A stretch of DNA of 64,000 nucleotides from a virus (lineage: Duplodnaviria; Heunggongvirae; Uroviricota; Caudoviricetes), in IMG/VR virus record IMGVR_UViG_3300027766_000002; one strand, 5' to 3'. The notes beneath the pieces were generated by a model. It searched no databases. It saw only the letters and a list, made by a program, of their open reading frames with translations, and was not told where the DNA came from. Positions 1-52,934 of this stretch are shown here, piece by piece; positions within the stretch are counted from its first letter, which is position 1; every line of letters begins with the position of its first letter. The translations under genes and the position numbers were made by a program.

Positions 1-387
1 TCCGAAATACAGCGTCAGGCTATGCAGATGGCCGACATTATTCTTCTTCCGTTCCGCCCAAAGCGCCGTGACATTAAATCACTGCGTAACCTCGATCCGG
101 TTCTGGATAACGTGCGTAATACCAACCACAAGGTTCGAATCATTGGGGTGATGAACCAATGTCCATCCTTGCCAAACCAGGCGCAGCGTATTATCAACGC
201 CAAAGGTGTAATTGAGTCATTTGGCATCGAGCCTGTGCCGGTTAACCTTTACACCCGCAATGTTTACGACGATGCTGAAGAGTCTGGCCGCACCATCTTC
301 GAAATGGCTGGTGCTGAACGCGATCAGAAGGCGGAAACTGAAATCATCGAGCTTGTTGATTACCTGCTGAACCTGGAGAATAAATAA
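1..387 (+). CDS. parA: ParA-family partition ATPase, C-terminal portion; the ORF is open to the window start, so it is 5'-partial
   Basis: The reading frame is open from position 1. The C-terminal sequence (…VPVNLYTRNVYDDAEESGRTIFEMAG…) resembles ParA/Soj C-termini. It is followed immediately by a small putative centromere-binding gene. Confidence 0.5.
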   Translation, partial: SEIQRQAMQMADIILLPFRPKRRDIKSLRNLDPVLDNVRNTNHKVRIIGVMNQCPSLPNQAQRIINAKGVIESFGIEPVPVNLYTRNVYDDAEESGRTIFEMAGAERDQKAETEIIELVDYLLNLENK

Positions 388-776
388 TGGCGAAGGGTAT
401 GGGTGATTTGACCAAGCGTGTAACGCCACCAGCAGCTTCAGAAGCGAAGCAGCCGGAAATGCAGCCAGCAACACCATCTGCACCATTGCGCAACCCTGTG
501 AAGCCCCAGGGGCGCCCTACGCGTGGTAAGAGCAAGATTCAGTCTCGCACCATGTCGATGGAAGATGAGTACATTGAGCTGATTGATATGCTGGCCGTCA
601 TTCCTCGCTTTGACAAGTTCACACGTTCTGACGTAATCCGCGCGGCTATTTTCCAGCTATCGGAAAAAAGTCCTGCTGAAATCGAAGAGGCTATTAAGCT
701 GAACATTGAAGCGGTGAATGCAAGTGACGTTTCATTCCGCACTGAAGAGATAAAGCGGAAGTTAATGGGAAAATAA
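387..776 (+). CDS. Small partition or centromere-binding protein (ParG/ribbon-helix-helix-like, tentative)
   Basis: ATGA overlap with the parA stop. 129 aa with a basic N-terminal tail and a C-terminal segment (TRSDVIRAAIFQL) that looks like a ribbon-helix-helix motif. Confidence 0.35.
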   Translation: MAKGMGDLTKRVTPPAASEAKQPEMQPATPSAPLRNPVKPQGRPTRGKSKIQSRTMSMEDEYIELIDMLAVIPRFDKFTRSDVIRAAIFQLSEKSPAEIEEAIKLNIEAVNASDVSFRTEEIKRKLMGK

Positions 777-828
777 CTATTCTGAAGGCCTGTAAGTCAG
801 GCCTTTACATTTCAGTTGAGATAAAAAA

Positions 829-1572
829 ATGTTTACAACTAAAAGATTCTATTTAGCAATACTATTAATAAGTATTTGCTCAGCCTTGTTTGTATTTGCC
901 TTAAATGAAATTCCCGGTGGTATAGTTTCGATAATCTGCACGGTCATAGGTGCAATGGGCGCACTTGTTGGAGGATGGTCAACGGGTCGGGCGGTTCAAG
1001 ATGCGGAAAACAAAGCAAAGAAAAACAGTTTTTTCATTTACAAAAAACTTTATTATAGGAGGGTGTTAGTAAACTCATCCTACTCTTCAACTTCATCGGT
1101 TAAATTTTTAACACATAAATTAGCATTAAAGATCGCTGTTGCAATAGTTAAACTCGTTGGGAAGCGTGAGAAGAGTAGCAAGAAATCCGAATCTATTAAA
1201 TCAAAAAAACAAACACTAACTGAATTATATTTAGTCAAAGTAAAGATCAATATTTTCAAAGGTCAGATTGTAACATTTTTTGGTATGATTGGGGCAACCA
1301 CTATGACGTTGGCAATGCAGATGTCAAGCATGCCTGTTGTTGTTCTTCTATGGTACATAATAGTCCTTGAATGCCTTGAGCAAATAATTTCCTACCGTGT
1401 TCGTAAAGGATATTTTGGAGCCAATCGTTATGAGGCGCTTCAGTTGTTGAATTTCATTAATCAAAACAAAGATGACGAAGATGTTACTGGCGGTGGTAGA
1501 CAAGTGTTTAAGGCCGTAGAGGTTATAAAACAAGAAAGTGAATATTCTGCCACAGGGGAATATGCGAAATGA
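829..1572 (+). CDS. Hypothetical multi-pass membrane protein (AT-rich accessory gene)
   Basis: 247 aa ORF with about four hydrophobic helices and a lysine-rich central segment. GC is far below the flanking sequence. Confidence 0.5.
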   Translation: MFTTKRFYLAILLISICSALFVFALNEIPGGIVSIICTVIGAMGALVGGWSTGRAVQDAENKAKKNSFFIYKKLYYRRVLVNSSYSSTSSVKFLTHKLALKIAVAIVKLVGKREKSSKKSESIKSKKQTLTELYLVKVKINIFKGQIVTFFGMIGATTMTLAMQMSSMPVVVLLWYIIVLECLEQIISYRVRKGYFGANRYEALQLLNFINQNKDDEDVTGGGRQVFKAVEVIKQESEYSATGEYAK

Positions 1573-1976
1573 TTAACTCTGAGAGCGCCTCTAAGCTACT
1601 TAGCGTTGGGCTGAATATTCTGACTTTTCACCATCCTATTCGAACGGCGATTGGGTTAATTGTGGCTGTGCTTGTTTGGTGTTTGACAGGAGCATACCCT
1701 GGAATTATCTTGGCATTAGGAATGGAGTCAAATAGCTACTCTAGGTCTACTTTGTCAATTTCTGGCTTTATGATTATTCAAATTAAAACTATATACGATG
1801 GGGTTACTGGGCGAGGGGTCAGTGAAGAAGTTCAATCTATAATTAACGTAATAGAAAAATCACCTATGACAAATGTCCAAAAAAGGCTGAAATACAGTGC
1901 GCTTATTGAGGCGCAAATCGAAAGGTACAGTAAAAGCTCAAAATCTGAACCTGAAGATACGAATGTAACGGAATAA
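1569..1976 (+). CDS. Hypothetical membrane protein (AT-rich accessory gene)
   Basis: ATGA overlap with the upstream gene. 135 aa with two N-terminal hydrophobic helices. AT-rich. Confidence 0.45.
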   Translation: MINSESASKLLSVGLNILTFHHPIRTAIGLIVAVLVWCLTGAYPGIILALGMESNSYSRSTLSISGFMIIQIKTIYDGVTGRGVSEEVQSIINVIEKSPMTNVQKRLKYSALIEAQIERYSKSSKSEPEDTNVTE

Positions 1977-2186
1977 AGTTACCTGCTTCTGTATAATTAA
2001 TATGACTAATATATAATAATATACGGAAGCAGGTTTTTTAAAGTGCCTAACATCAACTTACATCTACCCATCCTACTTTCCTGAAATTCCCAGCCCGCTG
2101 GCTTACAATATTCCCGAAATCACTGCTTTAAAAAAGATTGGTAACTAGCTATCATTCATTTACGTATAACTAACCAGCTACCTACT

Positions 2187-2924
2187 ATGAGCAATTTCTT
2201 TTACCAATGCTTAGGCAACGACGACCAGTATGGATTCATGGAAGAGTGGGATTCGGCCGTCATGGATGAGTGGGTCGCTAAGAACATAGGGCTGTCTCGC
2301 TGTAAAGGCGAAGCTGACCTCTTCGAGACTAAGTGGTTTGATTACCGCGACATGCACCCACTTCAGGCTACAGCTGTATTTACCGAAGAGTACAAACGCC
2401 AGTACGCCAACATCATGCTCACTCACGGTCGTGAAGACTTCCAGAGTGCGCCTTTCAACACCGGTTTAAAACGAGTTCCGTTTCAGGATCAGTCTGCCGC
2501 CAACAAAACCTCACTTTGGAAGGCTCGTCAGTTTGCCGATCGCTACTGCGTTAATTACGGCTACTTCATTGGCACCGTTCTATCGATCGCCGCATCTCGT
2601 CTCTGGGACAAGCTGCCACGCCCTCAACATCTTTGGCAGCCAGAGCTGATTGAGATCTTCGAAGACAGATTGAAGAAACGCGCGTTAACACGTCTGGATA
2701 GCTCTCTTTGGGGTTCTGGCTCTTCTGGGGTAATCGTGCAAGGGGACAACGTTGAAATCCAGCGAGACTACTTTGAGTGGCTTCTCACGCAGATTGAAAA
2801 TCGTGAGCCATCCCGTCGCGTTCTGATTATCTACTCCGCCGTTTGGCTGACAGAGCTTCTGCCCGAACACATAGCGCTTCAGCGCTTCCCTAACGAAATC
2901 ATGGAAGCACGGTCACTGAATTGA
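2187..2924 (+). CDS. Hypothetical protein
   Basis: 245 aa ORF with codon usage typical of the window. Preceded by palindrome-like motifs at 2141-2188. Confidence 0.5.
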   Translation: MSNFFYQCLGNDDQYGFMEEWDSAVMDEWVAKNIGLSRCKGEADLFETKWFDYRDMHPLQATAVFTEEYKRQYANIMLTHGREDFQSAPFNTGLKRVPFQDQSAANKTSLWKARQFADRYCVNYGYFIGTVLSIAASRLWDKLPRPQHLWQPELIEIFEDRLKKRALTRLDSSLWGSGSSGVIVQGDNVEIQRDYFEWLLTQIENREPSRRVLIIYSAVWLTELLPEHIALQRFPNEIMEARSLN

Positions 2925-2980: not shown

Positions 2981-3021
2981 ATGGAAAAGCACATGAACAT
3001 GATTAAAGAGGTGGCGCAATG
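2981..3021 (+). CDS. Leader peptide uORF (MEKHMNMIKEVAQ) translationally coupled to the helicase gene
   Basis: It carries the conserved ATGGAAAAGCACATG initiation motif. Its TGA stop overlaps the helicase ATG (ATGA). It contains the AAAGAGG Shine-Dalgarno for the downstream gene. Confidence 0.35.
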
Positions 3022-4359
3022 ACCACCATTTGCCATACCGGACGCCCATTGTCAGAAGAGTTTGATGATGACTTCCAGAACCGATTAACAGCTTACTACT
3101 GCAAGGATCAGGAGTTCCTGTTGCGCGCCGGGGATTTGGTTGATCCGAGCCAATTTGAAAACGCGGCAAACGCAATATTGGTTAACCTGGTTTCCTCTTA
3201 CTTCCGCATGTACAAGAGCGCACCTTCCAGCACGGCCATTCTCGACCAGCTGAAGCGCGCGAAGAAAGATAAGACGATCCGCGAAGAGCTGTTCCCGGAT
3301 GTGGTCGGCGCCTTCAAGCGTGTATTGGGTGAGAAATTGACAGACACCAAATACATGATTGACCGAGTGGCCACTTTTGCCCGGAGCATAGCTTTTGATG
3401 ACGCGCTGATCAAAGCGGCCGAGCTAAAAGAGAAGGGTGACTTCGAACGCGCCATGGAAGTGATGGCCAAGGTGCAGCTGGTGGGCGCGAGTGACACCAT
3501 AGGCATCTACAACTATCTGGGCGAAGCGGCCGAGCGTTTAAAGCAGCGTGAGTATGAGGCGTCTGAGGATTACGTACCAAACAGCATCACTACCGGCATA
3601 CCGCTGCTGGATCGACTGCTGTACCAGAAAGGGTGGGGGCGTCGTGAAATGGTTCTCTTCATGGGCTTCGCGAAGTCTGGTAAATCGACGGCCATGGGTG
3701 AGTTCTCCATTAACGCTACTTTAAAGGGCTTCAACGTTCTGTACGTCTCGCTGGAAGTTCACACCGCAATCTTGTCTGACCGTTTCGACGCACGTCTTTC
3801 TCAAACCGAAATGACGAAGTTGATCGAGAAGCGTGACGATGTTCATAAGAAGCTGGCCGACCTGGGCGCCAGTACCGGTGTGGGCAATTTGTGGGTTGTG
3901 GAGAGACCGTCTGGCAGCTTGTCACCTGCAGACCTCGATCGATTACTTGAAGGCATGAAGTCGAACGGGATGGTTCCTGACATGGTCGTGGTGGATTACG
4001 CCGACCTGATGAAACCAACACGACGCAGCGGCGATGAACGAGCAGATGTGAAAAGCATCTATACCGATCTCCGCGCAGTCTTCGACAAACACAATGCCGC
4101 TGGCATCACTGCATCCCAGACAAACCGAGAGGGTGGGGCGTCTGAGGTAGCCACGATGATGCACGCCGCAGATAACATTGAAAAGGTGCGTATCGCTGAC
4201 CTGGTAATCTCGATCAACAAAACGGAAGAGGAAGCAACGAAGGGTGAAGCGCGCTTGTACTTTGCAGGCTCTCGTAACCAGAAAGGCAACATCAGCATCC
4301 GAGTAAAGCAGAACCTGGAGCAGATGCGGTTTATTCAGGAAATTCTCGACGTTATCTAA
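3019..4359 (+). CDS. DnaB-like replicative DNA helicase (RecA-fold C-terminal domain)
   Basis: Walker A motif GFAKSGKST, followed by Walker B-like VVVDYADLM and a helicase C-terminal domain. 446 aa. Confidence 0.6.
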   Translation: MTTICHTGRPLSEEFDDDFQNRLTAYYCKDQEFLLRAGDLVDPSQFENAANAILVNLVSSYFRMYKSAPSSTAILDQLKRAKKDKTIREELFPDVVGAFKRVLGEKLTDTKYMIDRVATFARSIAFDDALIKAAELKEKGDFERAMEVMAKVQLVGASDTIGIYNYLGEAAERLKQREYEASEDYVPNSITTGIPLLDRLLYQKGWGRREMVLFMGFAKSGKSTAMGEFSINATLKGFNVLYVSLEVHTAILSDRFDARLSQTEMTKLIEKRDDVHKKLADLGASTGVGNLWVVERPSGSLSPADLDRLLEGMKSNGMVPDMVVVDYADLMKPTRRSGDERADVKSIYTDLRAVFDKHNAAGITASQTNREGGASEVATMMHAADNIEKVRIADLVISINKTEEEATKGEARLYFAGSRNQKGNISIRVKQNLEQMRFIQEILDVI

Positions 4360-4450: not shown

Positions 4451-4531
4451 ATGAGCGGCCATCATACCCCATCTTCCCTAATACACACAAAATTGCCTTC
4501 AAATTATGACCGAAGAGGATTGCTGGCATGA
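4451..4531 (+). CDS. 26-codon leader uORF coupled to the primase gene
   Basis: It starts at the conserved GGAAAAACACATG motif. It has no internal stop, and its TGA overlaps the primase ATG (ATGA). Confidence 0.3.
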   Translation: MSGHHTPSSLIHTKLPSNYDRRGLLA

Positions 4532-5643
4532 GCGACATTAAAGAGCTTTTGACCGAGCTGGACTTTGAGCAGTGGCTCGATACAGAGGGCATCATCTATC
4601 GCCGTGGTGGTGTCAGCGCGCGCGGTCGTGAAATAAACATCAAGGAGTGCCCGGTATGCGGCAGCTCCGGTTGGAAGGTGTATTTCAATCTGACCAACAA
4701 CGTCGGCAAATGCTTTGCGGGTGATCACCCAGAAGAGATTCAATTCAACAAGCTGGTATTCCTGAAGCATTACAGCGGCAAGTCACGCCGTGCATTTGAG
4801 GAATACGTGAACAATGCGCTGCTGGAGCAGGGCTGGGCGCCGAAACGAGAAGAGGTAAAACTGACCAGCGCCGTCGAGCTGGAAGGGCCGGTTTCGTTGC
4901 CGCGTCACTATGAGCTTCCGATCGAGGGTCAACTACCCACTTATCTTGTGGAGAGAAATGTAACGCCTGAGCTGGCCAAATATTTCGACCTTAGATACTG
5001 CGTAGAGGGCAAACATGCTTATGTGGATGTCTACAACGACCAGGTTCGTGGCCAAGATTTCGGTATGCGTATTCTGATACCAATTTACGACCTCGATGGT
5101 GTGATGAAAACCTTCCAGGGGCGTGACGTTACTGGCACTGCGGAGCGCCGCTACCTCTTCCCCATGACGTTGCCGGCGTCAGGTAAGTTTCTCTATAACG
5201 GCCACAACGCAGTGGGTAAACAGACTGTCGTGGTGAGCGAGGGTGCATTTGACGTTATTGGGATCAAGCGAGCACTGTTCGATGAGCCAACGCTGCGGGA
5301 TTACGTTGAGCCAATCGGGACGTTTGGTATGCATTTATCTGGTGTAACGACGCAGGACGAAGAGGATCAGTTAGGTGCATTCCTGACGCTCAAAGCGAAG
5401 GGGCTGAAGAACGTCGTAATGATGTGGGACAGTGAGAAGCAGGCAATCCGAAACACAATGGCCGCCGCGCGTAAGCTGGTGGGGATCGGACTTAACGTGA
5501 AGATTGCCTGTTTGGGCAAAGAGGGCGTTGACCCGGGCGACGCATCTGTTGAGGAAATCATCAAAGCATACTTCCGAGCGAAGCCCTACACTCGCCAGCT
5601 TGAGTTAATGGCAAAGGTAAAAGGAATAGCGGCTTTGGTCTGA
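4528..5643 (+). CDS. DnaG-like DNA primase (zinc-ribbon + TOPRIM)
   Basis: A CPVCGSSGW…CFAGDH zinc-binding motif and a TOPRIM-like VVVSEGAFDVIGI segment. It lies adjacent to the helicase. Confidence 0.65.
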   Translation: MSDIKELLTELDFEQWLDTEGIIYRRGGVSARGREINIKECPVCGSSGWKVYFNLTNNVGKCFAGDHPEEIQFNKLVFLKHYSGKSRRAFEEYVNNALLEQGWAPKREEVKLTSAVELEGPVSLPRHYELPIEGQLPTYLVERNVTPELAKYFDLRYCVEGKHAYVDVYNDQVRGQDFGMRILIPIYDLDGVMKTFQGRDVTGTAERRYLFPMTLPASGKFLYNGHNAVGKQTVVVSEGAFDVIGIKRALFDEPTLRDYVEPIGTFGMHLSGVTTQDEEDQLGAFLTLKAKGLKNVVMMWDSEKQAIRNTMAAARKLVGIGLNVKIACLGKEGVDPGDASVEEIIKAYFRAKPYTRQLELMAKVKGIAALV

Positions 5644-7431: not shown

Positions 7432-8753
7432 TGGAAAAGCTGATTACCCTTCGAGCCAAGCTGGATGACATCAAAGCGATGGGAACCAATGCTAAGAAAG
7501 AGGCTTTGGCCAAGCTGGACGACTTCGAGCAAAAAGCCGTGTCGCTGATGCTCAATCCATTCATCCGCTTCGGCATCAAGAAGTATAACGTAGCCCAGGC
7601 GCAGCTGGTGTCCACGCCAAGTGACCAGAAGGTATTGGATGTGTTGGATCAGCTGGCAACGCGGCAGCTGACAGGTGGAGCTGCCGTAACCGCAGTTGAG
7701 TCAATCGTTGGCTCTATGTGTGAGGCTGGTCAGGACGTGTTTCGTCGTTTCCTGCTGAAAGATCCGAAGGCCGGTGTCGGCATCAGCCTTTGCAACAAAA
7801 TCTTCTCGGCGCCGATTCCAGTGTTTGAAGTCCAGCTGGCCACCGCCTACAAGCAAAAGGGTGACAAGTTCCCATTCAAGCCTAACAAACACGCCAAATG
7901 GCCAATGATTGGAAGCATTAAGCTCGATGGGATGCGCGTGATTAGCGAGGTGATTGTGGGTGAAGAAGAGGTTAACTTCCTGTCGCGCACCGGCAATCCA
8001 GTAACGTCACTCGATCACCTTAAACCGGCAATGCTGGAGCTGGCTCGTGCTACCGGTCATCAACACGTCTTCTTTGATGGTGAGGCAACGGTCGGTTCAT
8101 TCAATGGCACTGTTTCAGCGATCCGCAAAAAGAATGTGAAAGCTGTAGGCGCTCAGTTCCACATCTTCGACTTCTTCTTGCCAGAGTGGAAGGCGTTGGC
8201 TAAGACCAAAGAGTACAAAGCCAATGGCATGAAGCTGAAGGAGCGTAAGGCTGCGCTGGTGGCGTGGTTCCGCAATGAGAGAAGCGAAGAGTCAGCGGGT
8301 GATTTAGTGCTGGTTCCCTTTGAAATCTACCTTAGCCATGAAGAGTATATTGCTCGATTCATGCAGCGTTTGGACGAGAACGAAGAAGGGGAAATGGCTT
8401 ACGACCCCAACTCTGTTTATGAATTTAAGCGCTCTCGTGCCTGGTGGAAAATGAAGGATGAGAACGAGGCAGATGGTGAAATCATTGGTTTCCTGCCTGG
8501 CGACCCGGATGCCGGCTTCGCACACACCCTCGGTAAAATCGTTGTGCGTTTGGAGGACGGTACGGAAGTTCGTACTTCAGGCTTCAAACATCAATATCTC
8601 GATGAGATCTGGCTGAATCAGGATAAATACATGGGGCGCATCGTGAAGGTCAATTTCCACGAATACACGCCTGATGGAAGCCTGCGCCACCCACGCCTTA
8701 AATGGCCAAGCTGCCTTCGTGATACTGAAGACAGGATCGGAGACAAGGAATGA
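7431..8753 (+). CDS. ATP-dependent DNA ligase
   Basis: Adenylation motif I KLDGMR (…GSIKLDGMRVI…). 440 aa, a size typical of phage ATP-dependent ligases. Confidence 0.7.
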   Translation: MEKLITLRAKLDDIKAMGTNAKKEALAKLDDFEQKAVSLMLNPFIRFGIKKYNVAQAQLVSTPSDQKVLDVLDQLATRQLTGGAAVTAVESIVGSMCEAGQDVFRRFLLKDPKAGVGISLCNKIFSAPIPVFEVQLATAYKQKGDKFPFKPNKHAKWPMIGSIKLDGMRVISEVIVGEEEVNFLSRTGNPVTSLDHLKPAMLELARATGHQHVFFDGEATVGSFNGTVSAIRKKNVKAVGAQFHIFDFFLPEWKALAKTKEYKANGMKLKERKAALVAWFRNERSEESAGDLVLVPFEIYLSHEEYIARFMQRLDENEEGEMAYDPNSVYEFKRSRAWWKMKDENEADGEIIGFLPGDPDAGFAHTLGKIVVRLEDGTEVRTSGFKHQYLDEIWLNQDKYMGRIVKVNFHEYTPDGSLRHPRLKWPSCLRDTEDRIGDKE

Positions 8754-8964
8754 CATTATGACTTCAACATAATCAGGTGCATATAGTTGTCTTAAATAAA
8801 ACCTAATCTTTTTTTGACGTGCTTTGCATCTTGTCAAAAAAAATCCAGGTTACTCATAACAAATCTATATTTATAGAATGAAGATGGCTTTAAAAATCTT
8901 CTAAATAGGCGTTGTAAGGTTGTGCCTGATAAATATGAGTAATTTCGAAAATTAGAGGTTTGCC

Positions 8965-9381
8965 ATGACAATGATGCTTAAGACCCTTAATGTAAATAAA
9001 TTTGATGTTGAACTCAAGGTAAATGAAGCGGTTGAAAGCCAAGAAATGGATATAGATCTACTTGGGAAATCTTATATTATCGGCCTAGTAAATATGACAG
9101 CTAGCACTTGTGCAACAATAGCAGCAACCAGACGAGTTGGAGGTTCAGACGCTGAGTGGAAATGGACCGTTATCCCCAAGGTATGCCCAAACTGCCGTGA
9201 AGACTTCCAGACGTGTTGTAACAAAGGAAGATACAGCCCTATTATGAGCACTGAATGCGATGATTCTGCTTTTGAATTATTTGTTGGATATATGTTAGAT
9301 AGTGATACAGCTAAAGGAACAATAATCAAGATTATACCTAACTGTCAGTATGCAGGAGGGTTAGTTGGACTTGAAGATTAA
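8965..9381 (+). CDS. Hypothetical Cys-rich protein (AT-rich region)
   Basis: 138 aa ORF with an AGAGG Shine-Dalgarno and multiple Cys residues. AT-rich flanks. Confidence 0.4.
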   Translation: MTMMLKTLNVNKFDVELKVNEAVESQEMDIDLLGKSYIIGLVNMTASTCATIAATRRVGGSDAEWKWTVIPKVCPNCREDFQTCCNKGRYSPIMSTECDDSAFELFVGYMLDSDTAKGTIIKIIPNCQYAGGLVGLED

Positions 9382-9477
9382 ATTTTACCTTAATATTTAA
9401 GTATTAAATGGAAGGGGTAAGTGCTAAATATCAGTTTTCAACGGACTAATTAACACCCAACCCGTAATAAAAGCATT

Positions 9478-9500
9478 AAAGCGCCTCTCTCGGGCGCTTT
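9478..9500. terminator. Bidirectional terminator hairpin
   Basis: aaagcgcctctctcgggcgcttt lies between convergent genes. Confidence 0.5.
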
Positions 9501-9534
9501 AATGCGTTGGGGATAACTATGAAAACCTCTGTTG

Positions 9535-9867
9535 TTACTGGTTTTTTAATCGAGTGAAAGAAATATAGTTACCAAAAAGCTTAGACAAAATTTTCTTTGC
9601 AAAGTACCAACCTACAGCAGCAGTGGTGGCCCAAACGATATAGGCAAAAGTATGATTAAAACCTAAAGTTAAGGCACAGAACTTTGCCGCATACCAGCCG
9701 GCTATCAAAGGTAACAGAAAGCCCAAAAACTTAAAGATCCCTGGGGTGCCATACTTGATTTCAGCCTTACATCCTCTGCAAACATTGGCACCATGTGGAA
9801 TTTCACTTCGGCAGTGTTCACAAGTTATGAGCCTTTGCTCTCCCATCACTTTTTCCCTTATGTGCAA
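9535..9867 (-). CDS. Hypothetical zinc-ribbon membrane protein
   Basis: CxxC…CxxC motifs at the N-terminus, followed by two hydrophobic helices. 110 aa. Confidence 0.45.
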   Translation of the reverse strand: MHIREKVMGEQRLITCEHCRSEIPHGANVCRGCKAEIKYGTPGIFKFLGFLLPLIAGWYAAKFCALTLGFNHTFAYIVWATTAAVGWYFAKKILSKLFGNYISFTRLKNQ

Positions 9868-10037
9868 ATTAAGTCGTTCTTCTACTTGTTAATTTTCATT
9901 TTACCCCAAATCATACCTGAAAGCTTTATCATCAAAATTGGTAGGCTACTGTTTCTAAGAACTGCCGTAAAAATCTGCTTAGACGCCTTTCAAGTGCGGA
10001 TTATCATTTCCGCATCATCCATTTACGAGCCACGTTT

Positions 10038-13809: not shown

Positions 13810-14859
13810 TTATGATTCGGTTTGCCGATCTTTTTTGGGATTAAATGATTGTAAGAAGCGCATAAGGAGAAAATCATCAGGGGCTTCAAAATCTACATAC
13901 CCATCAGGTTCAACAAACCCTTGCGCTATCCTTGGATGTCTCAGCGTTTCTTTTGGTAAAGCTTGAGTTGCAAACGGATTATGCAAGATGTATAGGCCAT
14001 CGGCCAGGTGCTCTACATAATCACTTTTTATTGTCTGGTTTACTCTAGGATATAGGGATCCATCAATGGGAGGCGTGAACGTAGAGTAAATGGTATGGGC
14101 AGAAGGGTTGTCAGCTAGCGCCCTCACCTTGCCCCATGTTGCAAGGCTGCTATAAATAACTGCACTTACGTCTGAGTATTCAGGAGTGCAGAAAAACCCC
14201 AAATCTATATGGGCATTTTCATTTTTTATCGCTGCATCAACATTATATGAAATCATGGTATTGGAACCCGATTCTATTGTTGCTTCTTCATCATGGTAAA
14301 GACCATATAAGGTCGCTAGTATGGGTCTGGCCGCGGCAAAATGAGCAAAAGGTCGGTCAAATGAGGCTATAGCGATTACGAATGGCCTATTTTTGCATTG
14401 GGGCAATTGTGAATAACGTGCTCGCAACTTCCTAACTTTAGCAATGAAGCTATTGCTTAATCTGATCGAGCTTTCTGAATTAAATCTATTGAAGTCTCTT
14501 GGCATATCTTCATGACTAAACCCGTAAACGCCTTGTCCTCCCTCAGCTGGAAGAGCTACAGTCGCCTCGATGCAAAACGCACTCTCACTTAAAACCACAA
14601 AATCAGGAGCATCATATGAGAAATCGTTAATTAGCCCTAACTCTTTTAAGTATGCATAAATGTATAATTCCCACAAACAAGGCTCAAATGTTGTTTGGAA
14701 CTCTTTCACGAATTTATTGTCTCTATCCTGAAATCCTTTCGCCCAACCATTTATGACATCTCTCTCAGGTTGGTATTGTTCCTTTTTCATCATAATGTAG
14801 ATAGGGTGTTGCTTTTCAAACGGAACAACATCTTCAAACAGATTTAGCATGAAGCTCAT
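13810..14859 (-). CDS. Hypothetical protein (AT-rich, minus-strand accessory gene)
   Basis: 349 aa ORF on the opposite strand to its neighbours. Low GC. No motif recognised. Confidence 0.5.
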   Translation of the reverse strand: MSFMLNLFEDVVPFEKQHPIYIMMKKEQYQPERDVINGWAKGFQDRDNKFVKEFQTTFEPCLWELYIYAYLKELGLINDFSYDAPDFVVLSESAFCIEATVALPAEGGQGVYGFSHEDMPRDFNRFNSESSIRLSNSFIAKVRKLRARYSQLPQCKNRPFVIAIASFDRPFAHFAAARPILATLYGLYHDEEATIESGSNTMISYNVDAAIKNENAHIDLGFFCTPEYSDVSAVIYSSLATWGKVRALADNPSAHTIYSTFTPPIDGSLYPRVNQTIKSDYVEHLADGLYILHNPFATQALPKETLRHPRIAQGFVEPDGYVDFEAPDDFLLMRFLQSFNPKKDRQTES

Positions 14860-14912
14860 GTTGTTAGTGACCTTAAAATCTATATTGGCGTTATTATTAA
14901 AATGCGAGAAAT

Positions 14913-14941
14913 AAAAAAGCCCCTTTAGAGGGGCTTATTTT
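14913..14941 (-). terminator. Rho-independent terminator (minus strand)
   Basis: aagcccctttagaggggctt hairpin with a T-run on the minus strand. Confidence 0.5.
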
Positions 14942-15471
14942 GCTTTGTGTGACATTCGAACGCCAGATTGACGACGCGGCGCAATAGGTCTATTGCGTTT
15001 AAGCACTCTATTCATCGGAACCATTTGCTGGGTCTGAGCATCATAAGCATACATCTGCCCGTCTGTCGGCATAATTTGAGAACCATCAATGCTTACACCA
15101 GGTGCTACGGCAACTTTAAGAGGAGGTCTGATCGTAGCCTCGATTGAAGCTGCCGCAGGGGTTTTCGTAATTCCAACCCGCACAACTAAAGTTTCACCTA
15201 CTTGAACTCTTGTGCGTTTCTGAGCGCGAAATTTTTTTTCTACCCATTTTGCTCGACCAGCAATGACTTGTCTTTGAGTGCCGACCTGTGCATTTCCAGC
15301 CTTTTCTTGGACTAAGCTGGCAGGGACGATCTTCCCCTCATGCCGAACGTACTCGCCCGAAGCAAGTTTACGCTCAGTGATTTTAGCGGAGGTTTTCTTC
15401 AATTTACGCGTCAGCGCAGCGTAAAGTTGTTCAGCTGAAGGGTTTTCAGTAGTATTTCGTGACGATTGCAT
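14935..15471 (-). CDS. Hypothetical basic protein
   Basis: 178 aa ORF on the minus strand, within the island. Confidence 0.4.
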   Translation of the reverse strand: MQSSRNTTENPSAEQLYAALTRKLKKTSAKITERKLASGEYVRHEGKIVPASLVQEKAGNAQVGTQRQVIAGRAKWVEKKFRAQKRTRVQVGETLVVRVGITKTPAAASIEATIRPPLKVAVAPGVSIDGSQIMPTDGQMYAYDAQTQQMVPMNRVLKRNRPIAPRRQSGVRMSHKAK

Positions 15472-16169: not shown

Positions 16170-17330
16170 ATGCTGACCCTAAAAAAAGAGGTTTCGCATA
16201 TGCGTAGTGAATTTGATTTGGCCAAGGCAGCAGAAAACTGTTCCGCAGAGACGATCGCGTTTCTGCAGACCGTTATCGACTCGCCGCTTGATCAGCTGGA
16301 AGATTTCAGTGATTCCGACCCGGTTTTCAGAAAAGCATTCATGCTTTTCACCCGGCTATCTTTGCTGGTGACTCGCCGCCGTCCCGAGCTTGGCGTCCAC
16401 TGCATTTTGATACACGTTCTGCCTAAAATTGGCGATCTCCCTCTGTCAAAAATCACCAAGGTGGTCATTAACCGGCTGACAAACCCGCTGATCGTGGAAG
16501 GTAAAATTGTTCAGGGTAAACGTGTCTTTTCCGTAATGAAGCAGTTCCTCGCTTGGTGTGTGTTCCAGGGTTATCTAGAGAACTCACCAGTTGGCGACAT
16601 TCCACTGAACAAAGTTGGTGGCTCAAACCCTAAGCCCAGGGAGCGCACGCTAACAGACGCTGAAATATGGGTGTTCTGGCATGTATGGGATTACTTCGAA
16701 GTTTGCGAGGTGACGCGCTGGGCTGCCAGATTGACGCTTGCTGCTGCTCGACGCCCTGACGAGATCCTACGTGCAAAATCCGCTGAGTTTGACCTCACCA
16801 ATAACATATGGAACCAGGGTCGTCGTAACAAGTCGAATCGAGACCACCGGTTGCCCATCAGCCCGATTATGAAGCTCTGTATCGAACGGCTGCTTGCCGC
16901 GGGTGAGGGTAGCGAATGGCTATGCCCATCTAACAAGAAAGCAGGGCGGCCGATGTCAAAGGTGGCCATCAGCCAATCTTTGCGCCGAATCCTCGAAACA
17001 CCAGAAATGCTGGCGGTTGAGCCGTTCACTCCACGTGATCTACGCAGGACTGCAAGGAGCTGTCTGGCAAGTTTGGATGTACCGAGTGATGTATCAAGAA
17101 AGGTTTTAAATCAAAGCCTTGAAGGTATAGACCGTGTGTACGACAGGCACGACTATATAGATCAGATGCAAGAAGCACTGTGCAAATACTCAGTATTTTT
17201 GTTTAATATAGTCGAAAGCGAGGGGGTGGAGGATTTGAGCCACAAATACAAAGGCGACCGTCTGGATCTATCAAACAGTCGCCTTGGACTTGGGGTCGTT
17301 AACTTTGGATCGCAGCAAGTATATCCTTGA
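16170..17330 (+). CDS. Tyrosine recombinase / integrase-family protein (the start may be the internal ATG near 16199)
   Basis: C-terminal catalytic region with ARRPDE…FTPRDLRRTARS…RVYDRHDY (R-[H/R]xxR-Y). Confidence 0.6.
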   Translation: MLTLKKEVSHMRSEFDLAKAAENCSAETIAFLQTVIDSPLDQLEDFSDSDPVFRKAFMLFTRLSLLVTRRRPELGVHCILIHVLPKIGDLPLSKITKVVINRLTNPLIVEGKIVQGKRVFSVMKQFLAWCVFQGYLENSPVGDIPLNKVGGSNPKPRERTLTDAEIWVFWHVWDYFEVCEVTRWAARLTLAAARRPDEILRAKSAEFDLTNNIWNQGRRNKSNRDHRLPISPIMKLCIERLLAAGEGSEWLCPSNKKAGRPMSKVAISQSLRRILETPEMLAVEPFTPRDLRRTARSCLASLDVPSDVSRKVLNQSLEGIDRVYDRHDYIDQMQEALCKYSVFLFNIVESEGVEDLSHKYKGDRLDLSNSRLGLGVVNFGSQQVYP

Positions 17331-17679: not shown

Positions 17680-17932
17680 AATAGTTTTTTCCTGCTTATT
17701 TATGCGAAATAATTATCAATTACGAGGTGTCATTTGCACCATTGCCCTGAGTGTATTACCGGCTAGAAAGTAAGTAAAGGGTTATCCCTCCTTAATGATA
17801 AGTAACCCACTAACTATTCATCAAAGGCCCATACACCAAGGCTTAATGAGAATTATTTTTGATATAAAACCTTTGATTTTTGTTACATAGCGTATAAGAT
17901 GCCGCCTCGATAAATAAGAACTGTCCCAAAGG

Positions 17933-18151
17933 TTGTTTATGGATGATTTAATCGCCTCCTTGAAGGCACTTGGCGTAGGCATGATTATCGCCGTTCCTTA
18001 CCATTTAGTTTCGGACATTATCCTTCGCTGCAACGGTATCGACATTGACTGCGGAGATGACGCTGTCGCATGTTTTCACATCAGCATTGCGCAAATGAAG
18101 TACACCCTTGCCTGCACTGGCGAAACCAGCCTGGTCACACGTTTTCTTTAA
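17933..18151 (+). CDS. Hypothetical small protein
   Basis: 72 aa ORF downstream of the AT-rich divergent control region. Confidence 0.3.
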   Translation: MFMDDLIASLKALGVGMIIAVPYHLVSDIILRCNGIDIDCGDDAVACFHISIAQMKYTLACTGETSLVTRFL

Positions 18152-18283
18152 ATCTCTTTAGCCTTTCTTAAAATCCAAACCTTGTTACTAGCCTGCGCGT
18201 TAATGGTCTCATTCATTGCGCGCAATGTTATTATCACCACTCAGAAAACAAATTGTTTTCATAAACAAGAGATGGAAAAGCAC

Positions 18284-20578
18284 ATGAAAAATAAACAAAA
18301 AATTAGAAAAGAGGTTCTGACATTTCGCGAAAGTGTACGTAAAGTCGTTGTCATGCTTTCTGGTAAAGATATTCCTGTGGCGGAGCGTGGTAGCCGTGCA
18401 TACGTCGAATATAACAAGGATGGTAAGCCATGCATGGTAAATCTTCCTTCACTGCCAGATGATGCGACTGATGGCCTCATGAACGCGATCCGTGGCTTCC
18501 TTGACCACGAAGTCGCTCACCTCCTTTTCACCGACTCGAAACTGGCATTTAAGCTGCTCGATAAGAAAGACAGCCCAGCTTTTCACCTCTGGAATGCCGT
18601 AGAAGATACCTTCATTGAACGACGTATGGGTGAAGTTTTCTCTGGATCTAAACGCAACCTTGTCAATACGCAACGTCATGTAATTGAAAAACTTTTCGTT
18701 CCGAAAGTGGATGATGCACTAAAGGCTTTATCTCGTAACCCGCGAGAACTCTTTCTTAAGTTCCTGTTAATGCCAGCTTTACGCGCCTGGGCAGGACAAA
18801 CGCCTTTTGTTGAGTTCATGGAGCCGTATTGGGCTTATGTTCGCGATCCTGTATCAAAACTAGATAAAGCTGGTGTGCCGGCTGCTGTGCCAATGTTGAT
18901 GAGCACCGAAGACTGCATCAAGCTGGCAGGCCGAATTTCACTGGCTTTAAAGGAAGAAATGGAGAAACCGGAAGGTAAATCTGGCCATGGTGATTCGGAA
19001 GAAAATGATAAGGAAAATGATTCGCCTGATGATGTAGGTAGTGAACAACCTACTAAATCAAATGATGAATCTAATAGTGATAAGCCTGGTAGTGTCGATG
19101 AGACGCAGGAGGAAGAAGAGCCTGCTCCTGTAATTAATAGTAATGAAGATAATATAAAAGATAAGGAAGACGGCTCTGAATCAGTTCCCGACTCCAGCAA
19201 CGCTAATGACTCCCAGCCTGAAGATGGTGACGCTCACGAAGATGACGCCCCAGCAAAATCAGGTGATGGTGATGATATACCAGAAGGTGAAGAAGAATCT
19301 GAGCAGTCTGAGGGGTTTGGTGGTTTCGAGAGCGACTCGGACGACAATGATCCAGATAATGAGCAGCCTGAAAGTGGTTCGGGCGGTGCAGACGATACTG
19401 GTTCAGCGGCCAACTCAGATGACCAGCAAAGCACACCAGGTGATCTAGAAAGTGATGGTCGTCAGGAAGCCACCCAGGGCGATCTAAACGAAGAAGATGG
19501 CGGTACTGATGACATTCCATTGGACGCAGCGTTTAAGGCGCTGGAAGGCACTGAGGTGGCTCCAGAGCAGGGCATGGAGGAAGCGCTCAACGAGGTAATG
19601 GCCAACGAGCTGATAGGTGTGCCAAAAGGCTCATATCGCCCATATCAACGCTCATATGACTTTATTGGCCCGATTGATGATGTCGAGAACCATCTCCGCA
19701 AAACTCATAAAGCTTTTGGCCGCATCCATCTTAACCGTGGTTTAAAGAACTGGCGTATCGACGACGAAGGCACCAGTTTATTTGCCTCGAATGTCGAGCG
19801 TCGTCTCGCTGATGGATCGGCCTCAACACTGGCCAAAGACCTTGAACGTGCCATTGCGAGTCGTAACAAAGTCCAGTTCGTACCTGGTCAACGTCGTGGA
19901 AAAGTGCATAGCGCCAATTTGTACCGACTGTCTATGAACGATGACCGCGTATTCCGTCGCAAGGAAGACCATAAGGCAGTAAACGCTTGTGTGCAGCAGG
20001 TTATCGACTTGTCTGGCTCGATGCAGGGTTCGAAAATTTGCCTTGCACTGGCCTGCGCCTACACAATTTCTGACGCGCTCGATCGCATAAATGTTCCGAA
20101 CATCATTACCGGGTTTACAACTGCAGGCTGTGACATCGATGCAGCAAGGAAGATGGGTCGCGGCTACAACCGCTATGAATCATTGATGCTCCCCACTATC
20201 AAGGGTTGGCACGAACGAGCAAACACGCCCACCACACGCAAACGCTTAGGCTGCTTGTCAGAGAGATTCCCCCTTGAAGACAACATAGATGGTGAATCAA
20301 TTATGGCTTTAGCTCAGCACTTTGCTGGCCGCATTGAGGATAAGAAAATCATGCTTGTCATGAGTGACGGTGCACCAGCTGGAATCGGTCATGACTTCAG
20401 CGACCATCTTAAAGCTGTGGCGGAGTCAATTGAAGGCAGTGGTCTTATTGAACTAATGGGTATCGGCATTCTTACGGATGCTCCCAGCCGGTTCTACAAG
20501 AACCACGTTGAAGTCAAAAAGGTGGAAGACCTGGGTGCCACTGTCGTGAGGAAATTGTCTCAATTGATACTTGGCTAA
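18284..20578 (+). CDS. cobT: vWA-domain protein with a long acidic low-complexity linker (CobT-like)
   Basis: Start at the GGAAAAGCACATG motif. The C-terminal von Willebrand A domain carries a MIDAS motif VIDLSGSMQGS. The central ~170 aa is D/E/S-rich. It pairs with the downstream AAA+ ATPase. Confidence 0.55.
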   Translation: MKNKQKIRKEVLTFRESVRKVVVMLSGKDIPVAERGSRAYVEYNKDGKPCMVNLPSLPDDATDGLMNAIRGFLDHEVAHLLFTDSKLAFKLLDKKDSPAFHLWNAVEDTFIERRMGEVFSGSKRNLVNTQRHVIEKLFVPKVDDALKALSRNPRELFLKFLLMPALRAWAGQTPFVEFMEPYWAYVRDPVSKLDKAGVPAAVPMLMSTEDCIKLAGRISLALKEEMEKPEGKSGHGDSEENDKENDSPDDVGSEQPTKSNDESNSDKPGSVDETQEEEEPAPVINSNEDNIKDKEDGSESVPDSSNANDSQPEDGDAHEDDAPAKSGDGDDIPEGEEESEQSEGFGGFESDSDDNDPDNEQPESGSGGADDTGSAANSDDQQSTPGDLESDGRQEATQGDLNEEDGGTDDIPLDAAFKALEGTEVAPEQGMEEALNEVMANELIGVPKGSYRPYQRSYDFIGPIDDVENHLRKTHKAFGRIHLNRGLKNWRIDDEGTSLFASNVERRLADGSASTLAKDLERAIASRNKVQFVPGQRRGKVHSANLYRLSMNDDRVFRRKEDHKAVNACVQQVIDLSGSMQGSKICLALACAYTISDALDRINVPNIITGFTTAGCDIDAARKMGRGYNRYESLMLPTIKGWHERANTPTTRKRLGCLSERFPLEDNIDGESIMALAQHFAGRIEDKKIMLVMSDGAPAGIGHDFSDHLKAVAESIEGSGLIELMGIGILTDAPSRFYKNHVEVKKVEDLGATVVRKLSQLILG

Positions 20579-51001: not shown

Positions 51002-51540
51002 TCGCAACCGGGCTGGACATTGAATCAACTGGGCTGGACTTCCGCGGTGGCCATCGAGTCATCGAGATCGCCCTATCCTCCTACAACATCATCACCAAAG
51101 AGAAGATAGCAAGCCTGGAGATGCGCTTTAACCCTCGGCGAACCATCCAACCAGAAGCGCAAAAGGTGCATGGTATCTCATTAGAGATGCTGGCCACCGC
51201 CCCACTCTTTGAAGATAAAGCCCCTGAGCTTATCGCGATGTTGGACGCAAGCGACTTTTACATTGCTCACAATGGAGAAGGCTTTGATGGCCCGTTCCTG
51301 CAACATGAGTTCAATCACTCTGGTCACACCATGCCAGACAAGCCCATGTTTGACACGATGTTAGAGGGGCTGTGGGCTACAGAAGATGGGAAGCGCCCTC
51401 GCCTGCAAGAGCTGGCTTTTGCGTTGGGGCTGGTCTATGACACGGAGAAAGCGCATAGCGCCCTCTACGATGTAGATCTGATGATGGAATGCTTCTTCCT
51501 TGCTCGTGAGAAATACAACCTATTCCAGCTTACTTTTTAA
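50998..51540 (+). CDS. DnaQ-like 3'-5' exonuclease (DEDDh)
   Basis: LDIESTG (Exo I), AHNGEGFDGPFL (Exo II) and HSALYDVDL (Exo III). Confidence 0.7.
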   Translation: MIATGLDIESTGLDFRGGHRVIEIALSSYNIITKEKIASLEMRFNPRRTIQPEAQKVHGISLEMLATAPLFEDKAPELIAMLDASDFYIAHNGEGFDGPFLQHEFNHSGHTMPDKPMFDTMLEGLWATEDGKRPRLQELAFALGLVYDTEKAHSALYDVDLMMECFFLAREKYNLFQLTF

Positions 51541-51549
51541 GTTTGTATA

Positions 51550-51573
51550 AAGGCCGCGGAAAGCGGCCTATTT
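51550..51573. terminator. Bidirectional terminator
   Basis: ggccgcggaaagcggcc hairpin between convergent genes. Confidence 0.5.
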
Positions 51574-51990
51574 ACATGGATAGACAACAATGAAAGATTT
51601 AAGCGCAACAACCTCTACTGACATATCACCCATTTCTTTCATCATTTTCCTACCTTCTTCGCTGACTAAAAAACTTTGCAGCGTTAAATCCAGTAAATCC
51701 CCGTTGATAGTTAAATCAGGAGGTGAGCAAAACAATGGTTTTTTGTTTATAAGGGCGGAAAAAACATTTGAAACGTTAAAACCGTTGGCAACGCCATTCA
51801 AATAAATACTGTCAATCGATGATCTATTTGATTTTTTTCCAATGGCTTTATTTTCAACGTATTCAACGTATTCATTTAGCGTGAATTTACTTTCGCGGGC
51901 AGCAAATGCTGATAAGGAAGATACGCAGGAAAGACAAGCTATCAAGAGGAAAATTGTTTTTTTCATACTTAAACTAAATTTATTTTGCAA
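51568..51990 (-). CDS. Hypothetical secreted protein (AT-rich, minus-strand moron-like gene)
   Basis: Signal peptide MKKTIFLLIACLSCVSSLSAFA. 140 aa. Low GC. Opposite strand to its neighbours. Confidence 0.5.
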   Translation of the reverse strand: MQNKFSLSMKKTIFLLIACLSCVSSLSAFAARESKFTLNEYVEYVENKAIGKKSNRSSIDSIYLNGVANGFNVSNVFSALINKKPLFCSPPDLTINGDLLDLTLQSFLVSEEGRKMMKEMGDMSVEVVALKSFIVVYPCK

Positions 51991-52130
51991 GTGTTACCGC
52001 TATTCTAGACCAAACAATTAGTGTTACAACATATTTTTTAAGCCTAATTAAATTGCTTTTTCCCCTAACTCAGTTTGGCAAAATAGCTGTCATCAACGAA
52101 GCACATTTAAAACAACGAAAGGAAAAGCAC

Positions 52131-52934
52131 ATGTCCAACGCAGCCCAAACAAACGTTTCTGACCTCGATGCTCTGTCTGCGATCTTGGCATCCCTTGATG
52201 AAACCCCAGCCGCCGCTGACACTCAGATGAAAGGCATTGATTCTTTGCTCGATGAGCTGGAAACGAACGCAGCTGAGGCCGCCACATCGACACCAGAGAG
52301 CATCGTGGCAAAGATCGAAAACGAATTACCGGTTACGCCAGCTGCTGCTTCAGGTGATATGGAGCAGGTGATCATTGATTTAGAAGAGTCGAACACGGCC
52401 ACACCGCCAGAGAAATCAACTGAGATTTTAGCCGGTGGCGAAGAGAATATTCTCCCGGTGATTGAAGAACCGGCCGCACCTGAAGTTCAGGAGGAAAAGC
52501 AACCTGAACCTAAGCCTAAAAAAGCCAGCACACCTCGTGGCGCTCGATTCACCTTTGACGGTAAGGACGATGCCTTCTTTGAGAAAGCTGGCCTGCAGCG
52601 CGAGGATTTCATGAAGTGCTACAACGAGGCTCCAGTGAAGGCAATGGACAAAATCCAAAACATTATGCACTGGTTCAGTGGTGGCCCGGATCTGAGCGTA
52701 TATACCCGTATTTCGTTGCACTCATTAATCGCTGACAAAACGGTCAGCAGCAATAGCCTCAAACTGGCTATGATGAGCTATCCAGAGAAGCCCTATCCAG
52801 TTGGCACTGCCTCCACTCAGGCTGGCCAAATGATGGCAGTATTTCCGGCGCTGGGTATCGCTGAGAAAGATGGGAAATCCTTAACCCTTAATGCTGATTC
52901 TCCTATCGTCAAAAAGTTTATGGCGGAAGAGTAA
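52131..52934 (+). CDS. Hypothetical acidic protein
   Basis: Preceded by AAAGGAAAAGCACATG. 267 aa. Confidence 0.5.
   Translation: MSNAAQTNVSDLDALSAILASLDETPAAADTQMKGIDSLLDELETNAAEAATSTPESIVAKIENELPVTPAAASGDMEQVIIDLEESNTATPPEKSTEILAGGEENILPVIEEPAAPEVQEEKQPEPKPKKASTPRGARFTFDGKDDAFFEKAGLQREDFMKCYNEAPVKAMDKIQNIMHWFSGGPDLSVYTRISLHSLIADKTVSSNSLKLAMMSYPEKPYPVGTASTQAGQMMAVFPALGIAEKDGKSLTLNADSPIVKKFMAEE

Follow-up and report, generated by a model that had tools for sequence, protein, structure and literature searches.

Positions 829 to 1976 of the virus record IMGVR_UViG_3300027766_000002 (Caudoviricetes; the whole stretch of 64,000 nucleotides that was analysed is referred to as the window) represent a self-contained operon of two genes, designated A and B in the following, which is exchanged horizontally. 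Both genes encode membrane proteins and are located in a variable cargo slot next to the partition genes of an SSU5-like phage-plasmid. A and B are conserved as a pair across phyla, from Enterobacterales to the cable bacteria (Desulfobacterota), and are exchanged as AT-rich cassettes among phage-plasmids, satellite-like islands, and prophages. The pair possibly serves to exclude other phages or to abort their infections.

The operon and its slot in an SSU5-like phage-plasmid

An earlier note, made from the letters of this DNA alone, had described a pair of genes overlapping at ATGA, a GC content far below that of the surroundings, and a position beside a partition locus. All three features were recovered, and both open reading frames (ORFs) fall exactly within the block described there:

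829..1572, plus strand: gene A, ORF encoding an inner-membrane protein of 247 amino acids
1569..1976, plus strand: gene B, ORF encoding a protein of 135 amino acids with two predicted transmembrane (TM) helices

The stop codon of A and the start codon of B share the 4-nt ATGA overlap. The GC content of block 829–1976 amounts to 0.374, compared to a mean of 0.488 for the window (standard deviation 0.034 in segments of 1148 bp; z = −3.3). Values as low as this were found in only 0.5% of equal-sized segments, and the GC minimum of the whole 64 kb falls within the block. Across positions of about 700–2200, the GC content ranges between 0.31 and 0.42, and it reaches 0.50 to 0.55 on both sides. The GC content at third codon positions (GC3) is 0.36, and the AT bias of the block is therefore not explained by amino-acid composition alone. 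Since homologues of both A and B were detected in many genomes, they represent real genes.

The window corresponds to that arm of an SSU5-like phage-plasmid in which the genes for replication and nucleotide metabolism are located. Its first 6 kb showed 75% identity to Salmonella phage SSU5 over the helicase–primase region and also matched more than 200 non-mobilizable plasmids, mostly about 105–125 kb in size, with Enterobacter, Salmonella, E. coli, Citrobacter, and Klebsiella as hosts. The best plasmid matches were obtained for Cronobacter sp. JZ38 (94%) and Enterobacter pCP102 (92%), both being non-mobilizable and 109–110 kb long. The par, helicase, primase, ligase, and DNA-metabolism genes are syntenic with those of SSU5 and the plasmid relatives, and the genomic context was the same in all contigs encoding an identical B protein. 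The gene order comprises a ParA-like gene, a small gene in the ParB position, the slot, a phrog_2500 gene, and the genes for a DnaB-like helicase, a primase, and a ligase, the block being located directly 3′ of the ParA-like and the small ParB-like gene. The features surrounding A and B are as follows:

1..387, plus strand: 3′ part of the ParA-like partition ATPase gene, belonging to the left-flank backbone; the ORF runs off the start of the window
387..776, plus strand: ParB-position gene of 129 amino acids (phrog_5111, E 2e-48), whose stop codon forms the left edge of the slot
783..807, plus strand: hairpin directly after the ParB-like stop, found in a scan for terminator-like structures (dG −15.6 kcal/mol, z −4.3)
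1981..2038, plus strand: hairpin followed by a U-run (UUUUUU), the conserved right edge of the slot (dG −24.8 kcal/mol, z −7.1)
2187..2924, plus strand: backbone gene of 245 amino acids in the right flank (phrog_2500, E 6e-81; a PHROG family with no assigned function)
3019–4359: DnaB-like helicase gene following the phrog_2500 gene (Pfam DnaB_C)
4528–5643: primase gene following the helicase gene (Pfam Toprim)

The full-length homologue of the ParA-like gene product (221 amino acids, encoded on identical contigs) gave weak CbiA/ParA/MipZ matches, and the gene is annotated as MipZ or ParA-like in relatives and in SSU5. The gene at 387..776 is a presumed partition partner by position only.

The edges of the slot were deduced from DNA alignments with JZ38 and pCP102, in which the flanks align (megablast, 92–94% identity) but the slot content does not. 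On the left, the edge coincides with the stop codon of the ParB-position gene (776). On the right, it is formed by the long hairpin at 1981–2032, the sequence of which is shared by all three elements irrespective of what lies in the slot; this hairpin features a 15-bp stem and, judged from its folding energy together with the U6 run, is the predicted intrinsic terminator of the cassette. The hairpin at 783–807 behaves differently: JZ38 and CP102 possess other hairpins at this site, and it is therefore part of the cargo and not of the backbone. Each cargo was found to carry its own distinct hairpin right after the parB-like stop (window 777–2038; locus L001 3780–5180; locus L002 3786–4600). The fixed right-edge hairpin and the cargo-specific left hairpins could mark recombination joints for cassette exchange.

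A survey of presence or absence at this locus among relatives, as proposed in the earlier note, revealed that the slot content varies between A/B alone, A/B together with a DUF2971 gene, the DUF2971 gene, and unrelated genes:

Window: A (247 amino acids) and B (135 amino acids)
Cronobacter JZ38: two overlapping genes of 290 and 134 amino acids
SSU5 and C. freundii pA_CitB: genes of 214 and 136 amino acids and a DUF2971 gene
E. coli p009_B: genes of 246 and 136 amino acids
Salmonella Tennessee plasmid: the DUF2971 gene alone
E. coli pLAO4 and Enterobacter pCP102: one unrelated gene on the minus strand

In the PHROG profile search, A was assigned to phrog_22270 (E 2.1e-17) and B to phrog_17322 (E 1.7e-15), two families carrying no functional annotation, and the slot pairs of SSU5 (SSU5_035/SSU5_036) and JZ38 matched the same two families. 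SSU5_035/SSU5_036 agree with the window pair in gene order, in overlapping each other, and in occupying the slot that follows par, but differ from it in that the basic loop of A is longer in the window and the DUF2971 gene following in SSU5 is missing there. The pair proteins of SSU5 and JZ38 are only 24–28% identical to those of the window, in contrast to the 92–94% identity of the backbone DNA between the window and JZ38 or pCP102; the Cronobacter relative, with 94% DNA identity, carries a pair at only 28% protein identity. The nearest relatives of the window pair are chromosomal copies in Pectobacterium and copies in unassigned short-read assemblies (Logan), with 45–47% identity for A and 68% for B. 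Homologous, yet so divergent, pairs on near-identical backbones argue that one allele of an old resident cassette was replaced by another, rather than that a new insertion took place.

About 74 plasmids of the PLSDB database carry a homologue of A (tblastn), all of them SSU5-like and non-mobilizable. As at least 210 SSU5-like plasmids exist, the pair is accessory in this family. The earlier note had regarded the block as a laterally acquired insertion. It is accessory, AT-rich cargo at a variable locus, as had been supposed, but an allele of a conserved cassette and not a unique insertion. Universally conserved core genes with typical GC content in relatives had been named as the finding that would speak against acquisition; instead, the pair is limited to the fraction of plasmids given above, and its copies in relatives are of low GC content, too.

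Protein architecture, pairing, and distribution of the A/B family

A Kyte–Doolittle scan of A revealed four hydrophobic helices (residues 7–25, 30–48, 147–165, and 170–188) and a loop (52–145) containing 23 Lys/Arg versus 5 Asp/Glu residues, in agreement with the polytopic membrane protein with a Lys-rich loop proposed before. According to the positive-inside rule, this loop is predicted to reside in the cytoplasm. The protein is composed of a variable N-terminal TM pair, the Lys/Arg-rich and presumably cytoplasmic loop, and a conserved core comprising, as predicted, an amphipathic helix, a TM hairpin, and a cytoplasmic tail. The tail features the motif YR[IV]xxG[YFL][FY]GxNxxEA followed by an acidic-Gly-basic segment; R190, G194, G197, and E202 are invariant tail residues in the A protein of the window. 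The AlphaFold model of A is all-helical and of low confidence (mean pLDDT, the predicted local distance difference test, of 56 or 59, these being the figures for the A and B models), and only residues 130–212, representing the conserved core, were modelled confidently (pLDDT 72–88).

For B, the same type of scan indicated a strong TM segment at about residues 27–48 and a weaker and shorter second hydrophobic helix at about 60–79, which is also helical in the low-confidence AlphaFold model. Of the two membrane helices previously ascribed to this protein, the first is thus firmly predicted and the second is plausible, but less firm. Conserved features of B include YPxR(T/S)xxG upstream of TM1, a Trp residue in TM1, Lys-Thr after TM2, and a predicted helical cytoplasmic C-terminus. 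According to the predictions, most of either protein lies on the cytoplasmic side of the membrane, and a profile–profile comparison of A with B showed no homology to each other.

The overlap of the two genes implies coupled translation and makes a complex of A and B in fixed stoichiometry probable. The start codon of B is preceded, at a distance of 9–10 nt, by the Shine–Dalgarno sequence AGGGGA. On average, Shine–Dalgarno sequences were stronger for B than for A (4.8 vs. 3.05 of 6 matches to AGGAGG; n = 38, p = 1.5e-6), a comparison weakened by uncertain start codons of A. B appears from these sequences to be the better-translated partner.

The number of relatives depended strongly on the search method. 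With a word-indexed search, 26 relatives were obtained for A and 21 for B, exclusively from Enterobacterales, and an exhaustive profile search with A recovered 631 cluster representatives (50% identity) at E ≤ 1e-3, 142 of them at E ≤ 1e-10. For fast-evolving membrane proteins such as these, a quick word-indexed search badly underestimates the family size (26 vs. 631 for A). Members of the A family share the C-terminal motif [YF]R[IV]xxG[YFL][FY]G[TN]NxxEAxx[LI]IxF[IL]xxNxDxIDFxDxxGxx[RK][RK]; since this motif lies outside the membrane segments, the homology is not an artefact of hydrophobic composition.

One subfamily of A was found in cable bacteria (Candidatus Electrothrix, Candidatus Electronema, and other Desulfobulbaceae), where the A homologue is followed by an overlapping B homologue of 145–149 amino acids. 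The last codons of A in these organisms (...GEEA) form the AGGAGG ribosome-binding site of B (L023 5779–6866; L026 5857–6962; L024–L025).

To evaluate the pairing, a DNA pattern built on the A motif only was used, which retrieved 49 metagenomic loci and one viral locus; local hidden Markov models (HMMs) were then run and identified A in 72 loci. Of these, 70 offered enough room to look for the second gene, and in 67 of them A was immediately followed by B in the same orientation; the three remaining loci look like contig-end or threshold artefacts. The junction consists of a 4-nt overlap in 41 loci and of an 8–11-nt overlap in a further 12. Among 37 non-redundant loci, whose hosts range between 36% and 65% GC, 35 have a cassette that is AT-rich relative to its flanks, the mean difference amounting to 10.7 GC points. 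Its distribution is patchy, as exemplified by one allele occurring in a single genome out of 5426 complete E. coli genomes.

In Enterobacterales, the pair always resides in accessory regions of mobile elements. Apart from the par-proximal slot of SSU5-like phage-plasmids, these are integrase/AlpA/Bro-N/D5-primase islands of Enterobacter, a Klebsiella aerogenes locus in which A/B and PD-T7-5 form a trio adjoining an insertion sequence (IS) element and an integrase remnant, the ends of Pantoea prophages (accessory or moron regions) featuring tail-fibre assembly, Ail/Lom, acyltransferase, and umuDC genes, and an island of Pectobacterium adjacent to smpB/ssrA that also contains AbiU (E 4e-152) and the P4 genes psu and delta. 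On unassigned short-read contigs, the pair was detected downstream of a D5-type primase. In the Enterobacter and K. aerogenes islands, the PD-T7-5 homologue (E 7e-131) begins 58 nt after B (L008 10001–12227; L011 10001–12227). The Pectobacterium polaris island (L004 5185–8586), in which AbiU (AIPR) accompanies psu and delta of P4 type and A/B lies beyond the truncated end, looks like a degraded P4-like satellite.

The DUF2971 gene following the pair in SSU5 corresponds to the PADLOC defence candidate PDC-S31 (E 2e-33), and such a gene stands beside A/B or replaces it in SSU5-like elements (L003 4020–4778, L029 4019–4777). A DUF2971 gene was validated in 2026 as defence system DS-45 (PMC13092281). 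Together, the PDC-S31 match and the family's validated member support the slot as a defence hotspot. PD-T7-5 homologues alone, residing in ssrA islands, were found in 135 of the 5426 E. coli genomes. An obligate partnership of A/B with PD-T7-5 or DUF2971 was rejected, because each occurs without the other.

A broader survey covered 137 neighbouring ORFs within 2.6 kb at 41 diverse loci. At E ≤ 1e-8, PADLOC identified two type IIG restriction-modification (RM) enzymes, one type II RM pair, PD-T7-5, PDC-M41A, PDC-S48, and three mad2-like matches, and the Pfam analysis assigned many of the neighbours to housekeeping genes. In the cable-bacteria locus L023, a vapBC-like pair is located between ileS-lspA and A/B.

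Possible functions of the gene pair

As deduced from its context, A/B may be a membrane-acting superinfection-exclusion or abortive-infection pair protecting the host and the element from other phages, a reading that we favour as a realistic possibility rather than a probable one. Superinfection-exclusion, abortive-infection, or toxin-like functions had already been suggested in the earlier note, and the direction taken there is reasonable. It is suggested by the hotspot anatomy of the slot, with its variable cargo, sharp edges, and modular content, by the Enterobacterales neighbours PD-T7-5, AbiU, and DUF2971/PDC-S31, and by the carriage on phage-plasmids, satellite-like islands, and prophage moron regions. 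The pairing in 67 of 70 loci, distant taxa included, the AT-richness in 35 of 37 loci, the alleles of 24–28% identity between near-identical backbones, and the stronger Shine–Dalgarno sequence of B point in the same direction. In a corresponding mechanism, the TM hairpin of A would be the effector and would permeabilise the membrane or block DNA entry, the invariant cytoplasmic tail of A together with B would act as sensor or brake, and B, as the better-translated partner, would hold A inactive until infection. Still more tentatively, A/B might be an ancient membrane system of two components for immunity or exclusion that has so far escaped recognition, ranging from Enterobacterales to Desulfobacterota and exchanged as allelic cassettes, in which the invariant A tail would be a new infection sensor or trigger for a TM-hairpin effector.

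Several known systems resemble A/B in part. RexA/RexB of phage lambda is a two-gene abortive-infection cassette acting at the membrane, in which an inner-membrane protein with four TM segments, whose proposed action is depolarisation of the cell, is combined with a controlling partner, the cytoplasmic RexA. A/B resembles it as a two-gene cassette on a temperate element with a four-TM inner-membrane protein and a partner, but both A and B are membrane proteins and sequence similarity is lacking (no match to the PADLOC RexAB models). T4 Imm and Sp, P22 SieA, and HK97 gp15 are small inner-membrane accessory proteins of phages and prophages that block the entry of incoming DNA. Their sequences are unrelated to A/B, they are mostly encoded by single genes, and, unlike them, A/B is also present on chromosomes outside a phage context and extends to very distant phyla. 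The SLATT/2TM and S_4TM effectors of CBASS, Pycsar, and retron systems, which are proposed to oligomerise into pores, are similar to A in their arrangement of core helix, TM hairpin, and cytoplasmic helix. In contrast to those systems, A adjoins no cyclase, SMODS, or reverse transcriptase gene, and its partner is always B.

The status as best single guess is owed to two precedents. For DS-13 ('TMO1'), an E. coli system from the DefensePredictor screen that consists of two small proteins, both with TM segments by prediction, a defence function was validated (PMC13092281). In P4 hotspots, six of eight randomly chosen loci whose annotation named no function were protective (PMC13586616). DS-13 and A/B are both pairs of small TM-bearing proteins, and neither DS-13 protein features a validated defence domain. 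DS-13 differs by its sizes (183 and 233 amino acids), its N-terminal TM anchors, its large soluble parts, and one remote HEPN-type match, and the A/B motifs are missing from it. Other candidates were compared and found not to be identical with A/B. Of the DefensePredictor systems reported from SSU5-like elements of Salmonella, DS-33 is a GNAT pair and DS-37 consists of one gene; among the two-gene candidates named after TM proteins, TMO1 differs in sequence and TMO2 in protein sizes; TMRA includes a RexA-like protein of 340 amino acids; and none of the new P4-hotspot systems (Crouga, Bandua, Aernus, Toga, Reve, and Hailong) is a TM pair. The defence phenotype of Klebsiella p2 was attributed to restriction-modification in the respective paper. 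No published description of the A/B pair was found in a literature search.

Several results weigh against an immune function. In searches of Pfam, PADLOC, NCBIfam, and PDB sequences and with Foldseek, A, B, and their homologues could not be linked to any family of defence, exclusion, holin, or toxin proteins. Pfam, NCBIfam, and PADLOC gave no meaningful match for A, B, their homologues, and ten distant family members. A and B have no model among the defence models of PADLOC-DB v2 that were scanned (including RexAB, Kiwa, Zorya, Rst_2TM_1TM_TIR, Abi, and PDC), none of which matched A, B, or homologues at E ≤ 1, and distant members of the A family had no PADLOC match at E ≤ 0.01 except one spurious Cas13a. 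The A and B profiles did not match PDB sequences, and Foldseek searches of the models against viral and PDB libraries returned nothing at E < 0.1. A census of weak Pfam matches over 139 family members revealed nothing consistent, five members matching DUF4231 (best E 0.05) and two S_4TM (best E 0.11); the SLATT_1-5, DUF4231, and S_4TM models matched neither A nor B of the window. These weak matches are regarded as a lead towards SLATT-like effectors and not as evidence. Since both structure models are of low confidence (pLDDT 56 and 59), ideas on pore, brake, and topology are inference, and the apparently better translation of B depends on the start codons assigned to A. Furthermore, the terminator-like hairpin lies 22 nt upstream of the ATG of A, and no promoter-like site was found between the parB-like stop and the start of A (776–829), so expression in the plasmid state can only be presumed. 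Defence genes represent a small minority of the 137 neighbours, the association appearing strong in Enterobacterales and modest elsewhere, and the pair of cable bacteria is semi-conserved after proA-nadD (three genomes) or ileS-lspA (two genomes), which fits a cellular role, too.

Rather unlikely, in our opinion, is an addiction or toxin–antidote module for upkeep of the phage-plasmid, in which A would act as a toxin that damages the membrane and B, translated together with it, as the antidote, loss of the element resulting in killing or arrest of the cell. Such a module is consistent with the position adjoining the partition genes in all SSU5-like carriers, with the tight overlap and the apparently better-translated second gene, with other toxin–antitoxin pairs (GNAT/DUF1778, Doc/Phd) near the same region in relatives, and with the AT-richness and the preceding hairpin, which fit low expression of a toxic product. 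However, the pair is missing from two thirds of the SSU5-like plasmids, and addiction makes less sense for those copies that lie between chromosomal housekeeping genes or in accessory regions of prophages. In addition, A and B are large and conserved for a toxin–antidote pair, nothing indicates that they differ in stability, and type II toxin–antitoxin families of Pfam and NCBIfam gave no match, the operon layout being compatible with them. Addiction is, moreover, compatible with defence, as many toxin–antitoxin modules also counter phages. A membrane role for the element or the cell, namely, holin/antiholin-like lysis timing, membrane-stress homeostasis, or anchoring of the replication or partition machinery, is considered slightly less likely again. 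It would explain why the pair and the invariant cytoplasmic tail motif were kept across distant phyla and why the position after proA-nadD or ileS-lspA is semi-conserved in several cable-bacteria genomes, and small all-helical membrane proteins, as modelled here, resemble holin-like architectures. On the other hand, most SSU5-like elements share the lysis, replication, and partition genes and do without the pair, which is thus not needed there, and the pair also occurs where par genes are missing, so a role as partition accessory was rejected. Matches to Pfam families, including holins, or to phage-shock-type families were not obtained for A/B, and the only match to a lysis-category PHROG was a weak one of 35 residues to an Rz-like spanin family (E 0.0015); the lysis genes of SSU5 are located elsewhere, upstream of par. 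The AT-richness relative to the flanks even where synteny is kept and the patchy distribution, such as the single E. coli genome with one of the alleles, also argue against it.

The least probable of the explanations considered is a counter-defence or host-modifying pair, which would benefit the element by changing the envelope of the host or by inhibiting one of its membrane-bound systems for defence or uptake. Accessory slots of the same kind hold anti-defence genes in phages and satellites, and, according to a report on the SSU5 group, its cargo includes defence as well as anti-defence genes (bioRxiv 10.1101/2025.09.12.675607). Improbable as it is, this explanation has to be reconciled with the chromosomal and apparently non-mobile positions in cable bacteria, with the lack of similarity to known anti-defence proteins, and with immediate neighbours that are defence genes and not anti-defence genes.

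Further features of the window and meaning of the gene pair

Further into the window, PHROG matches were obtained for a DNA polymerase, CobT/CobS-like proteins, ribonucleotide reductase, thymidylate synthase (ThyA), an SbcC-like protein, and an integrase-like protein. The integrase-like gene (16170–17330; phrog_1, E 4e-39) is present in an element expected to replicate as a plasmid and may encode a dimer-resolution recombinase. A second island of low GC content (8551–10000; 0.39) contains small ORFs, among them one on the minus strand (9535–9867) encoding a protein of 110 amino acids with two CxxC pairs and hydrophobic helices; this island may be another accessory cargo spot. Three more stretches of low GC content (0.39–0.41) were observed at 14151–15050, 17701–18350, and 51401–52300, the first of which was noted to lie in the minus-strand gene 13810–14859 (349 amino acids, phrog_8571, with no assigned function).

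Block 829–1976 is not a strange new kind of element, but it exposes a large, unannotated, and obligately paired family of membrane proteins. The cleanly bounded slot, reaching from the parB-like stop to the conserved terminator hairpin, could be mined for more accessory systems of these phage-plasmids. Should A/B prove protective, the systems of defence or exclusion would be joined by a widespread one that consists entirely of membrane proteins and is missed by present annotation tools, and the pair would account for part of the 'cryptic' cargo of SSU5-like phage-plasmids, which are clinically common in Klebsiella, Enterobacter, Salmonella, and E. coli. If the pair should instead turn out to be an addiction or membrane-homeostasis module, it would still represent a large, paired, and unannotated family (at least 631 clusters at 50% identity for A) that deserves a name and a model.

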